DNA of 64,000 nt from Patescibacteria group bacterium (lineage in GTDB: Bacteria; Patescibacteriota; Minisyncoccia; Phycocordibacterales; UBA12079), in contig JAYEKM010000008.1 of the NCBI GenBank assembly GCA_034661035.1, positions 11,677 to 75,676 on the forward strand, written 5' to 3'. The translations under genes and the position numbers were made by a program. Position 1 is the stretch's first letter, and each line of letters opens with the position of its first letter. Under the pieces are notes generated by a model. That model was not told the DNA's origin and searched no databases. It saw only the letters and a list, made by a program, of their open reading frames with translations. Shown here in pieces: positions 6,002 through 42,788 of the stretch.

Positions 6002-6180
6002 ATAAACAACATTATAACTTATCTTAAGAACTGCGCAAATTTTTTACTCGGAATACAAGATTAGGTCACTCTCATGGATATTTATTTCCCCACCCAATGT
6101 GGGTCATAAATATCTCATTCCCTTGACCTCCACTCGGCTGTTCCGACTTCGCTTTGCTTCGTCGGGCTTCGCACAGCCTT

Positions 6181-6321
<141 letters not shown>

Positions 6322-6370: not shown

Positions 6371-6434
6371 TTCTACCAATCCCGACGATTCTGTCGGGAC
6401 CCCGACGCCGTCGAGGCTGAGCTAACCGTCCCCT
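6371..6434 (-). pseudogene. tRNA-Val 5' fragment interrupted by a 37-nt GC-rich hairpin insert (pseudo-tRNA)
   Basis: The minus strand reads GGGGACGGTTAGCTCAG-[CCTCGACGGCGTCGGGGTCCCGACAGAATCGTCGGGA]-TTGGTAGA and then diverges. No anticodon or T arm follows. Confidence 0.45.
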
Positions 6435-6474
6435 TATTTTTTAATTATATACTATTTGAGAGTTTAGTTACAAA

Positions 6475-6549
6475 TGGTGACCCTACCGGGAATCGAACCC
6501 GGATTACCAGCTTGAAAAGCTGATGTCCTAACCATTAGACGATAGGGCC
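6475..6549 (-). tRNA. tRNA-Glu (anticodon TTC), CCA encoded
   Basis: GGCCCTATCGTCTAATGGTTAGGAC-A-TCAGC-TTTTCAA-GCTGG..CCGGGTTCGATTCCCGG-TAGGGTC-ACCA. Confidence 0.85.
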
Positions 6550-6619: not shown

Positions 6620-6699
6620 GGAGGTGTGGCTGAGTGGACGAAAAGCAAACTGCTTTGCTTTTCATCTGAACAAAGTGAAGTGGCAAACACTCAGCCACA
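6620..6699 (+). other. duplicated tRNA-Ser 5' 20-22-mer fused to a long hairpin (pseudo-tRNA or structured element)
   Basis: tattGGAGGTGTGGCTGAGTGG is repeated exactly at 6742. Here TGTGGCTGAGTG pairs with CACTCAGCCACA about 50 nt downstream, there is no T arm, and a T-rich tract follows. Confidence 0.4.
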
Positions 6700-6745
6700 T
6701 ATTTCTGAAACATTTTTTGTTTTGGACGACAATACAAAGTTTATT

Positions 6746-6832
6746 GGAGGTGTGGCTGAGTGGTTGAAGGCACCGCTTTCGAAAAGCGGCATGCGGGAAA
6801 CCGTATCAGGGGTTCGAATCCTCTCGCCTCCG
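6746..6832 (+). tRNA. tRNA-Ser (anticodon CGA), type II with long variable arm
   Basis: GGAGGTG..CCGCT-TTCGAAA-AGCGG-CATGCGGGAAACCGTATC-AGGGGTTCGAATCCTCT-CGCCTCC-G. Confidence 0.85.
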
Positions 6833-6869
6833 CACAAAAAAAGAGTCTAAATTATAATATTCAACTAGC

Positions 6870-7824: not shown

Positions 7825-8235
7825 ATGAAAATATTTATAATTTCTAGCAAGAATTTTTACGAAAAAATTCCTGAAATAAAAGAACAGTTGGAAAAAAATG
7901 GAAATATTATTTCTTTACCTAATTGTTTTGATGCCCCTGAAACTGAAGCCAAATATAGGGATTTAGGAAAAAAAGAACACTCTAAGTGGAAATCTGAGAT
8001 GATTTGTCATAGTGTAGATGTAATCAAGGATAATAATGCCGTCTTAGTCTTAAATTTAGAAAAAAATGGTATTAAAAATTACATCGGAGGAGCTACATTT
8101 CTCGAAATGTATGATGCTTTCCGCCTTGGTAAAAAAATATTTCTATATAATCCTGTCCCCGAAGGGATGCTATATGATGAGATAATTGGTTTTAATCCAA
8201 TTGTTATAAACCAAGATTTAAATTTAATTAAATGA
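7825..8235 (+). CDS. hypothetical protein (possibly nucleoside 2-deoxyribosyltransferase-like Rossmann fold)
   Basis: 136 aa; stop overlaps the tsaD start by 4 nt; the fold guess is weak. Confidence 0.4.
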   Translation: MKIFIISSKNFYEKIPEIKEQLEKNGNIISLPNCFDAPETEAKYRDLGKKEHSKWKSEMICHSVDVIKDNNAVLVLNLEKNGIKNYIGGATFLEMYDAFRLGKKIFLYNPVPEGMLYDEIIGFNPIVINQDLNLIK

Positions 8236-9476
8236 AAATATTATCAATAGAAACTAGTTGTGACGAAACTGCTATCAGTATTTTAGAAGCTGAGGGTTCT
8301 TTCGGAGACAAAAACAACCCGCCCAAATTTAAGATTTTAGCTGATAATTTAATCTCTCAAATTGATATTCACAAAGAATACGGGGGTGTCTTCCCTGCTC
8401 TTGCAAAAAGAGAACATTCCAAAAATCTTATCCCCCTCTTAGCCAAATCACTGGAAGAAGCCTCTCTGGCTGTTCCAACTAATAATTCATTTGATAAAGG
8501 ACCAATCAAAAAAATTCTAGAAAGAGAACCCGAGCTAACTAAGTTATTTTTAGAATATATTCCAACCATTAAAATTCCTGAAATAGATGCTATCGCTGTT
8601 ACCCAAGGACCAGGACTTGAACCTGCTCTATGGGTTGGAATTAATTTTGCCAAAGCCCTATCTTTAGTTTGGAATAAACCACTTATTCCAGTTAATCATA
8701 TGGAAGGGCACCTCGTCGCTTCGCTCCTCAAGTCAAAAGTCAAAAGTCAAAAGTCAAAAGTAATTAAATTTCCTGCCATTGGACTACTAATATCTGGCGG
8801 GCATACAGAACTTATATTAATAAAAAAATGGGGTCAATATGAAAAAATTGGTCAAACCTTGGACGATGCGGTAGGTGAAGCTTTTGATAAAGTAGCTAGA
8901 ATGATGGATCTGCCCTACCCTGGCGGACCAGAAATTTCTAAACTAGCTCAAACAAATAGAAACTACACTTCCGGAGGTCCGACCTCCGGAAGTGTAGAGA
9001 TTGGACCTCCACAGGTTAAATTACCAAGGCCTATGTTAAACACCAATGATTTCAATTTTTCATTTTCTGGTTTGAAAACAGCCGTCTTATATCTAATCAA
9101 AAATCTAAAAAAAGAAAACAGTTGGGAAGAATTACCGATCGAAGTCAAACAAAAAATTGCACTTGAATTTGAAGACGCTGTGATTGAAATTTTGCTTAAA
9201 AAAACCAGGACTGCGATTGAAAAATATAATGCTAAAACATTAATCTTAGGAGGTGGTGTTGTTGCTAACTCTCAAATCCGCCAAACCTTCCAATCACTTG
9301 GAGGTCCAACCTCCAAGTTAGAAGTTTCGATGCCAGAAATAGAATTTTCAACCGATAATGCTGTGATGATTGGCATTGCTGGTTATTTTAGATATCTTCA
9401 GCAAAAAGAAAAAGGTCAGTTGCAAACTGCAACCGACCTTCTTGAACTCCCAGCTGATGGAAATTTAGAGTTCTAG
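8232..9476 (+). CDS. tsaD: tRNA N6-adenosine threonylcarbamoyltransferase TsaD (Kae1/YgjD)
   Basis: N-terminal SIETSCDETAISIL and metal-binding H..H region; carries unusual in-frame repeat insertions. Confidence 0.9.
   Translation: MKILSIETSCDETAISILEAEGSFGDKNNPPKFKILADNLISQIDIHKEYGGVFPALAKREHSKNLIPLLAKSLEEASLAVPTNNSFDKGPIKKILEREPELTKLFLEYIPTIKIPEIDAIAVTQGPGLEPALWVGINFAKALSLVWNKPLIPVNHMEGHLVASLLKSKVKSQKSKVIKFPAIGLLISGGHTELILIKKWGQYEKIGQTLDDAVGEAFDKVARMMDLPYPGGPEISKLAQTNRNYTSGGPTSGSVEIGPPQVKLPRPMLNTNDFNFSFSGLKTAVLYLIKNLKKENSWEELPIEVKQKIALEFEDAVIEILLKKTRTAIEKYNAKTLILGGGVVANSQIRQTFQSLGGPTSKLEVSMPEIEFSTDNAVMIGIAGYFRYLQQKEKGQLQTATDLLELPADGNLEF
8730..8762 (+). repeat. heptanucleotide tandem repeat (AAGTCAA)x4.7 inside tsaD
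   Basis: aagtcaa aagtcaa aagtcaa aagtcaa aagta encodes KSKVKSQKSKV. Confidence 0.9.
8963..8997. repeat. 35-bp perfect GC-rich palindrome inside the tsaD coding sequence
   Basis: CTACACTTCCGGAGGTC-C-GACCTCCGGAAGTGTAG encodes ..TSGGPTSGSV.. Confidence 0.9.
9297..9317. repeat. 21-bp perfect palindrome inside tsaD, same core as 8963
   Basis: CTTGGAGGTCCAACCTCCAAG encodes LGGPTSK; core GGAGGTCCRACCTCC. Confidence 0.9.
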
Positions 9477-33460: not shown

Positions 33461-33475
33461 ATTTTTCTTGTTCGC

Positions 33476-33495
33476 CCTGCCTGCCGGCAGGCAGG
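33476..33495. promoter_or_regulatory. 20-bp perfect GC-rich palindrome 16 nt upstream of the MFP start (candidate operator or 5' hairpin)
   Basis: CCTGCCTGCCGGCAGGCAGG with outer TTCGCCC/GGGCGAA; about 80% GC in a roughly 30% GC genome. Confidence 0.45.
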
Positions 33496-33608
33496 CTTGG
33501 GCGAAATTATATCTACCTTGCAAAAATTACTGGGGTATTATACCAAAAATAAGTGAAAAAGATAGATTTTCTCCTAAAAAATGGTAAAATAACACTTACA
33601 TAAACAAT

Positions 33609-41786: not shown

Positions 41787-42788
41787 ATGTTAAATTTTTG
41801 TACTTTATTTGATAGAAACTATTTTTATAAAGGGTTAACAATGTATAATTCTTTAAAGAATAGCTGTAATGAAGATTTTAGTCTTTGGATTTTATGTATG
41901 GACAATATTACCTATAACCTTCTGAAAAAAATGGATCTGCCAAATATAAAATTAATTACTTTGCAAGAATTTGAAACCTTAGAATTACTTAAACTAAAAA
42001 AAGAAAGAAGCTTATCAGAATATTCCTGGACATGTGCTTCTAATTTTGTCTGGTTTCTCTTGCAAAAACATAACCAAATAAAAACAATAATTTATTTAGA
42101 CGCTGATATTTATTTTTTCAATAGTCCTAGTATTTTAATCGAAGAATTAAGAGACAAGGATGTTATAATAACTGAACATCGTTACACCAAAAAATACAAT
42201 CAGACAGTCACCAGCGGAAAATATTGTGTTCAATTTATGGTTTTTAAAAATAATCTAAATGGATTAAAAATTCTTAATTGGTGGCGTAAAAAATGTCTTA
42301 ATTGGTGTCCAAATTCTATTAACAATGCCAGTTTTAATGATCAAAAATATTTAGATGATTGGCCAATTCGTTTTAAAAAAATTCACGAATTACAACACCT
42401 AGGGGGGGGTGTGGCCCCTTGGAATGTTCAACAATATATATTTTTTAATAAAAATTCTGTAATTATCGGAAAAGAAAAAGTCTCAAATAAACAATTCCCC
42501 TTGGTATTTTATCACTTTCATGATTTTTATTTAATATCCAGAAATAAATATTACTGTTGTAAAAATTATGCATTAAGTAAAAATATTAAAAAAAATATTT
42601 ATGAACCATACTTTAAAAATCTTCAGAATAGTATATTATCAACTAAAATTATAAATCCAAAATTTAACTTTGGTTTTAGAGATATCAACCTCAAAATCAC
42701 TCATAGACTATATACCTATATAATTAAAAACTATTATTTTAAAAAAATATATAAAAAATATGAACGGAAATATAAAAATAAAAGTTAG
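41787..42788 (+). CDS. GT8-like nucleotide-diphospho-sugar transferase
   Basis: LFDRNYFYKGLTMYNSL and YLDADIYF (DxD) resemble LgtC/GT8; contains the G8 homopolymer. Confidence 0.5.
   Translation: MLNFCTLFDRNYFYKGLTMYNSLKNSCNEDFSLWILCMDNITYNLLKKMDLPNIKLITLQEFETLELLKLKKERSLSEYSWTCASNFVWFLLQKHNQIKTIIYLDADIYFFNSPSILIEELRDKDVIITEHRYTKKYNQTVTSGKYCVQFMVFKNNLNGLKILNWWRKKCLNWCPNSINNASFNDQKYLDDWPIRFKKIHELQHLGGGVAPWNVQQYIFFNKNSVIIGKEKVSNKQFPLVFYHFHDFYLISRNKYYCCKNYALSKNIKKNIYEPYFKNLQNSILSTKIINPKFNFGFRDINLKITHRLYTYIIKNYYFKKIYKKYERKYKNKS
42402..42409. repeat. poly-G8 homopolymer inside the GT8-like gene (candidate phase-variation tract)
   Basis: acctaGGGGGGGGtgtggcc encodes HLGGGVAPW; a G8 run is exceptional in a roughly 30% GC genome. 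Confidence 0.9.

Follow-up and report, generated by a model that had tools for sequence, protein, structure and literature searches.

The tRNA-Val locus analyzed here raises the question of why a truncated copy of the 5′ part of the gene, split by a GC-rich double hairpin, is found immediately upstream of the intact gene. The answer to which we give a probability of about two in three is that the insert is a small palindromic insertion element, belonging to a family spread across the Patescibacteria, which sits in a redundant tRNA-Val copy that is read through as a leader. The window (the whole stretch of DNA that was analyzed, 64,000 nucleotides) is assigned by its FtsZ relatives to the Patescibacteria, class Paceibacteria. 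A Pfam scan of the ten ORFs flanking the locus identified HisS, FtsA, FtsZ, TrxB, a DUF389 protein, TsaD and a class I aminoacyl-tRNA synthetase (tRNA-synt_1). ARAGORN and Rfam call three intact tRNA genes only: tRNA-Val(GAC) (6321-6248, minus strand), tRNA-Glu(UUC) (6475-6549, minus strand) and tRNA-Ser(CGA) (6746-6833, plus strand). The TsaD homologue (8232-9476) has 414 residues matched by its Pfam model in two separate stretches and may carry an insertion. Isolated GC-rich patches are found elsewhere in the AT-rich window, a palindrome (TTCGCCCTGCCTGCCGGCAGGCAGGCTTGGGCGAA) and a run of eight G (CCTAGGGGGGGGTGTGGCCCC), at 33465-33508 and 42392-42427. The only public contig found with an identical DUF389 protein, a Logan contig from the same organism (L001), ends at about position 6278 within the tRNA-Val/inverted-repeat region, which suggests that the repeats at this locus break assemblies.

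All parts of the interrupted copy are encoded on the minus strand. It starts with tRNA-Val positions 1-15 carrying one extra base (6433-6417; GGGGACGGTTAGCTCAG, to be compared with the 5′ end of the intact tRNA-Val, GGGCGGTTAGCTCAG), continues with the 37-nt double hairpin (6416-6380; CCTCGACGGCGTCGGGG TCCCGACAGAATCGTCGGGA) and resumes with a D-arm remainder (6379-6370; TTGGTAGAAC) that matches tRNA positions 16-25 (TTGGTAGAGC) at 9 of 10 nucleotides. The insertion point is in the D-loop, between G15 and U16 of the tRNA-Val copy, and not after the D-stem as had been proposed from the sequence-only reading. An AT-rich spacer of 48 nt (6369-6322) separates the leftover copy from the intact gene. 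A sigma-70-like promoter match (TTGTAA-18-TATAAT, 6444-6473, minus strand) is found just upstream of the leftover copy; the copy and its hairpins lie between the predicted tRNA promoter and the intact tRNA-Val gene. The insert has a G+C content of 26/37 in a window of 31% G+C. Hairpin 1 (6416-6400, CCTCGAC-GGC-GTCGGGG) has a 7-bp stem with one T.G pair and hairpin 2 (6399-6380, TCCCGAC-AGAATC-GTCGGGA) has a 7-bp stem closing a loop, AGAATC, that recurs in the family; both form as expected in folding predictions. The pattern CCGAC-N3-12-GTCGG occurs once in the 64 kb for an expectation of 0.01, so that the hairpin motif is beyond chance. The direct repeat CTGAGCTAACCG.CC, with a spacing of 110 nt, was recovered independently in a repeat search. 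Similarity to the rest of tRNA-Val was undetected in the 48 nt that follow the D-arm remainder (p=0.57). The description of the locus as a pseudo-tRNA, with a truncated 5′ copy of tRNA-Val, two GC-rich CCGAC/GTCGG-type hairpins within 37 nt and neither an anticodon nor a T arm behind them, agrees with these results. The covariance models of Rfam 15 returned nothing over the element in the window, even at E ≤ 10, or in 16 other loci.

At least 120 loci with such hairpin pairs, most of them within protein genes, were identified when metagenome contigs were scanned for the pattern. A family of small GC-rich hairpin elements, offered from the sequence alone as the alternative to a recombination hotspot, is the main answer for this insert. 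Among the matches listed, the contigs are mostly CPR-like with a G+C content of 31-59%, and many come from 0.1-µm groundwater fractions. Similar doublets away from tRNAs are found in other Paceibacteria. Five doublets were counted in 1.14 Mb of unselected Paceibacteria FtsZ loci (80 species) versus 0-1 in shuffled sequences: the element is real but present in low copy number, a few per Mb.

The architecture of the element is well defined. The stem is exactly 7 bp (NNC-CGAC ... GTCG-GNN, core CCGAC/GTCGG). Of 128 copies, 112-119 have Watson-Crick pairing at the two outer pairs, when 58-67 are expected; three pair types are found at each, and the position immediately outside them is unpaired. 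The two hairpins of a unit mirror each other, with G as the first base of loop 1 and C as the last base of loop 2; the loops are often exact reverse complements (GCTTCG/CGAAGC), which makes the pair an inverted doublet. Recurrent loops are GCTTCG/CGAAGC, GTTTCA/TGAAAC, GTAAA and AGAATC, the last being the one in the window. Loop length ranges from 3 to 16 nt and total element length from 38 to 47 bp across the family (37 nt in the window). Nesting also occurs, with single hairpins found inside the loops of other hairpins. There is a flank preference at each end, TCAR/YTGA with the element at the slash (T.47, C.50, A.59, R.77), that persists when the tRNA-linked copies are left out; the D-loop sequence TCAG/TTGG of the window matches it at 7 of 8 positions. 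An outer stem closing both hairpins was ruled out because the TCAR and YTGA flanks do not covary, and they are therefore a flank or target preference. RNA-strand-specific selection was also considered, since every one of the three stem substitutions in the Val lineages gives T.G when read on the tRNA strand, and rejected, as T.G and C.A mismatches are equally common family-wide.

A blastn search of the locus against a phage collection returned nothing; five matches in a viral scan, all on contigs of 55-68% G+C, are probably due to chance, and a phage origin was not retained. In one contig (L155), 114-nt inverted repeats with a double hairpin centred in each (3-116 and 2205-2318) are positioned on either side of a gene coding a 504-residue proline-rich protein, and this longer unit is also found in L137 and L201. 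A transposon bounded by hairpin pairs was considered for L155 and rejected because inspection of the enclosed proline-rich protein sequence gave no sign of a transposase. No description of such an element in Patescibacteria was found in the literature searched, where the tRNA work found concerns group I introns at position 35/36. It is apparently an undescribed element family, distributed across ultra-small Patescibacteria.

Protein genes provide the evidence that the hairpin pair is inserted DNA. Open frames of at least 100 codons harbour 75 of 119 copies (63%), with genes coding DnaK, the CCA-adding enzyme and a DnaE-like polymerase among them, and the in-frame copies yield recurrent peptides in three frames. 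In DnaK of an Adlerbacteria lineage an insert of 15-16 residues is found in six of the seven scorable clusters, all at least 96% identical to the query, and is absent from all 112 scorable clusters of 80-92% identity; the filled site reads GFGKNK[PRREAVGVPTKASGK]DEK versus GFDKKKDEK for the empty one. The CCA-adding enzyme lacks the insert in 90 of 120 relatives, the closest one (80% identity) included, the empty site being IQKIFPDSAYEN, while seven scattered relatives carry an insert at the same site (SRR..VGTPT..SVG..) with variable loop length. The absence of the hairpin pair from such close orthologues identifies it as inserted DNA. When filled and empty sites were compared at the DNA level in the two genes, the insertions were clean and 39-45 nt long, with no evident target-site duplication. 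Another copy (L093, 1595-1629) lies within a stretch matched by the bacterial 23S rRNA model, itself broken by large insertions. Third codon positions within the stems are identical between orthologues at 8/8, 7/8 and 7/9 sites, when other synonymous sites are about 45% identical; this points to constraint or to repeated re-insertion.

The family is also linked to tRNA genes: 23 of 125 copies are at most 150 nt from a tRNA, a zone covering 4.1% of the sequence, which corresponds to a 4-5 times enrichment. A recurring layout is composed of tRNA positions 1-15, the hairpins, the D-arm remainder, 7-58 nt and an intact tRNA with the same 5′ end. It is found at Val-GAC (the window, L004, L142 and L213), Thr-CGT, Thr-UGU, Lys-CUU (two tandem units) and Ile-GAU. 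The order differs in L163, where the intact tRNA is immediately followed by a second copy with hairpins and a spoiled 5′ strand; L177 resembles it, as judged from the 34 nt beyond its hairpins only. Partial tRNA copies adjoin 18 of 115 tRNAs in related genomes. Two leftover 5′ pieces (L028, L209) are devoid of CCGAC hairpins, so that duplication is possible without the element. Most leftover 5′ pieces have some hairpin at the D-loop, unrelated hairpins included (L036, L035 and the tRNA-Ser element described below), a hint that the hairpin may be inserted and the tRNA end duplicated in a single event.

These observations bear on the proposal that the locus is a recombination hotspot or a former integration site. 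In its explicit form, the structure would be the scar of an integrase-type site-specific integration into the tRNA-Val D-arm: the leftover piece would be the displaced attL half, the 5′ part of the intact tRNA would have been brought by the element, and the hairpins would be an element end or recombination site. The direct repeats of tRNA positions 1-15 that flank the insert agree with such a scar, as do the partial copies near 18/115 tRNAs, the leftover pieces of L028 and L209, and several small T-loop inserts bounded by tRNA 3′-end repeats that are found in the same tRNA cluster in relatives and probably in the window. However, most occurrences of the hairpin pair are away from tRNAs, in frame in protein genes, others lie far from any tRNA, and integration into tRNA genes does not explain the pair itself. 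It is bordered on both sides by tRNA-like sequence, which indicates insertion into the leftover piece rather than at its boundary. The "element" between repeats would be merely 7-58 nt long in many examples and 95 nt in the window, larger inserts between the same repeats were not found among the relatives' loci read, and loop lengths of 3-16 nt misfit a fixed crossover spacer. No recombinase family is found among the Pfam matches of the ten flanking ORFs scanned, of which the ORF at 7825-8235 has no match to any family. The hotspot or integration-site idea finds support for the locus as a whole, from the partial tRNA copies and T-loop inserts, but we consider it improbable as the origin of the interrupted 5′ copy and do not retain it for the hairpin pair.

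The region around the three tRNA genes has further repeated structures. On the minus strand, the segment 3′ of tRNA-Val (6047-6247) contains a terminator palindrome (6214-6239) followed by an exact inverted copy of the tRNA 3′ end (6181-6200, 20/20), whose existence had been correctly noted from the sequence alone. Beyond further hairpins lie GGTCA..hairpin..GTGACC (6064-6069) and, at 6047-6063, a degenerate direct repeat of the 3′ part of the tRNA. Seven loci of relatives (L067, L069, L027, L065, L019, L211 and L003) have inserts built alike, in Val, Ser and Glu tRNAs at position 56/57 of the T-loop. Direct repeats of the 3′ end of the tRNA border these inserts, the repeat in L027 taking in 33 nt of flank, and the inserts may be a family of miniature tRNA-targeting elements. 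Upstream of tRNA-Ser (6620-6745, plus strand), the duplicated 5′ end reported previously is real (6620-6637): positions 1-18 of tRNA-Ser are repeated there, and behind them comes a hairpin whose CTGC loop is invariant and whose stem keeps 8 of 12 pairs by two-sided changes across five genomes. An inverted copy of the tRNA-Ser 5′ part is found at 6688-6699. This upstream feature looks like a conserved structured element rather than debris. A hairpin at 6134-6177 had been regarded as a relative of the pair in tRNA-Val. The structure found there (6142-6166) has the CCGAC/GTCGG stem alone in common with the pair, and its loop, TTCGCTTTGCTTC, is a different recurrent motif. It was rejected as a member of the double-hairpin family because its conserved part is the loop, carried by unrelated stems in relatives. 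The loop motif, TCGCTTCGCT, is also found on unrelated stems in L003 (8680-8860 and 9820-9860), L005 and L021, and these hairpins are a second recurrent type around the tRNA genes.

Relatives of the Val locus were reached through the neighbouring DUF389 gene. The locus is organised alike in a related species (L004, FtsZ 79% identical), where the stems are conserved but the loops differ. In L213/L214 (80% identical) the leftover piece carries the hairpin pair CTCCGAC-GATAG-GTCGGGG TCCCGAC-TGAAAC-GTCGGGA. Counted with the D-arm remainder, the stretch between the hairpin pair and the intact tRNA is conserved in length, at 58 nt in the window, 57 nt in L213/L214 and 59 nt in L004. In the three species, leftover piece and spacer together measure one tRNA length; this length would fit a decayed full-length tRNA copy, but the spacer has no detectable tRNA similarity and we do not claim this origin. 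A plain tRNA-Val is found in L207/L208 (84%), L003 (82%) and L211/L212 (81%), while in L209/L210 (80%) a leftover copy persists, limited to positions 1-11 and devoid of these hairpins. The intact tRNA-Val of L003 sits directly behind the TATAAT-containing flank that in the window precedes the leftover piece. This arrangement indicates that the leftover piece marks the original gene start and that the promoter probably reads through it.

The position behind the promoter suggests another possibility, namely that the leftover 5′ piece and its hairpins are a selected functional leader of tRNA-Val, or an operator bound by a protein, that would for example compete with the true 5′ strand for the acceptor 3′ strand, or else stabilise the precursor or time its processing. 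Among the three carriers (the window, L004 and L213/L214) the block is invariant at 46 of 54 positions versus 12 of 57 in the randomised neighbouring spacer, and it begins a few bases downstream of the promoter match. In the predicted fold of the precursor the leftover 5′ strand pairs with the 3′ acceptor strand of the intact tRNA, a prediction that cannot tell the two near-identical 5′ strands apart. The tRNA-Ser upstream hairpin, with its compensatory changes, is a comparable case. Nevertheless, the hairpin pair is missing from the four closest relatives sampled (L207, L003, L211 and L209, the latter keeping positions 1-11), so that a leader role is possible but not required. Gene conversion from the adjacent tRNA could keep the conserved 15 nt identical, and the element also occurs in ORFs, in the 23S rRNA region and in spacers, where function as a leader is impossible. 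We regard selection for a leader as an unlikely account of the structure.

The reading as a tRNA gene that is split, permuted or interrupted by an intron and is reassembled as RNA, superficially suggested by a GC-rich structured insert at a non-canonical position and a separate 3′ fragment on the opposite strand (6181-6200) that recall archaeal D-loop introns and split tRNAs, has almost no chance of being correct and was ruled out: neither an anticodon nor a T arm follows, ARAGORN and Rfam find no complete intron-containing tRNA at the site, excision of the element from 132 family copies with 36 boundary combinations each produced a complete tRNA in 0/132, the transcript of the opposite-strand fragment would repeat the hairpin sequence and not complement it, and an intact tRNA-Val(GAC) is found 48 nt away.

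The insertion element that we favour can be compared to several known systems. The Rickettsia palindromic elements (RPE) are reportedly selfish palindromes found in frame in essential protein genes and also in RNA genes and spacers. They share with the family described here in-frame insertion in protein genes, the addition of a short peptide in tolerated loops, patchiness among orthologues and absence from close ones. However, RPE are AT-rich single long hairpins of ~100-150 bp confined to Rickettsia, whereas a GC-rich pair of hairpins with 7-bp stems, 38-47 bp in total, is found here across Patescibacteria. There is no sequence similarity, the core CCGAC/GTCGG being unlike the RPE consensus. 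REP/REPIN/BIME sequences are short GC-rich imperfect palindromes arranged as inverted doublets and moved by RAYT (IS200-like) transposases. The inverted doublet, with stems kept by compensatory change, is a feature of the present element too, but REPs lie outside genes, with tens to hundreds of them in a genome, while we find five doublets per 1.14 Mb and one in the 64-kb window, mostly in genes. The GTAG head of REPs is found at only 8 of 240 ends, where the consensus flank is TCAR. The GC clusters of yeast mitochondria are palindromic insertions, rich in G+C and 30-50 bp long, into an AT-rich genome; they are mobile, sometimes nested, and tolerated in frame in the protein gene var1. They resemble the element in size, in being GC-rich palindromes in an AT-rich genome, in nesting and in in-frame tolerance, and differ in their organellar host, sequence and target/flank rules. 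RPE, REP/REPIN and yeast GC clusters are the closest analogues, and the element departs from every one of them in a defining respect (size; copy number and location; GTAG head).

The other systems compared are more distant. Attachment sites of genomic islands and phages in tRNA genes are said to fall into anticodon-loop, T-loop and 3′-end classes. They have in common with the locus the direct repeat of a tRNA part, with an intact gene restored and a displaced fragment left behind. The known classes, however, duplicate the 3′ part; here it is the 5′ part, with 7-58 nt between repeats, no recombinase family matched in the flanking ORFs scanned, and hairpins that interrupt the fragment rather than bound it. 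Archaeal non-canonical tRNA introns and split tRNAs also feature short structured GC-rich inserts at the D-loop position, but in the present case the insert is neither surrounded by a complete tRNA nor accompanied by a bulge-helix-bulge motif, and it is found in a bacterium, next to an intact gene. Terminal inverted repeats as in MITEs are present (CCCCGAC / GTCGGGG), with no clear target-site duplication in the two genes compared.

As an insertion element, the hairpin pair would spread, or would once have spread, as selfish DNA and survive only where 13-16 extra codons or an additional RNA stem are harmless, that is, in protein surface loops, spacers and spare tRNA copies. A cell would not survive an insertion into its sole copy of a tRNA gene, and tRNA-type targets would therefore be seen only beside an intact copy. 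In the window, the leftover copy would probably be transcribed as part of the tRNA-Val leader and then be cut off by RNase P. The 15-nt direct repeats would allow tandem expansion or precise loss of the insert by homologous recombination, which would explain its patchy distribution among relatives; the tandem units found in L152 indicate that recombination between these repeats does happen. Against this reading, no transposase or other mover was identified, a target-site duplication is not visible, the copy number is low, and no pair of identical copies at different sites, as recent movement would leave, was found.

The stems are also more conserved, as judged by sequence comparison, than would be expected of a dead selfish insert. 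It is conceivable, though we hold it as a tentative and rather doubtful extension, that the double hairpin represents a class of DNA hairpin element, mobile or actively maintained, that is particular to Patescibacteria and has so far gone undescribed. Such an element would home to TCAR/YTGA-like sites in the loops of hairpins, both tRNA D-loops and those of the element itself. Its insertion in tRNA genes would be mechanistically coupled to a duplication restoring the target, and its stems would be kept, even at synonymous sites, through recognition by a host or element protein. The hairpin pair would then belong to a novel system of transposition or maintenance, or be a chromosomal site that has been co-opted, and not junk in decay. 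An enzyme dedicated to recognising the hairpins, if there is one, would constitute a compact system for targeting DNA hairpins.

The element has consequences for annotation, as there is a risk of taking leftover tRNA pieces for pseudogenes or integration sites, and the recurrent 13-16-residue peptides (PRRPxGVGVPTEASGK, TPTPKGRGSDRSVGE) can mislead alignments and domain calls. The genomes of Patescibacteria are tiny and gene-dense, and they are thought to be poor in selfish DNA. The family would be a new example of selfish DNA residing, in many lineages and with its stems intact, in essential genes such as those coding DnaK, the DnaE-like polymerase and the CCA-adding enzyme, in the 23S rRNA region and in spare tRNA copies.
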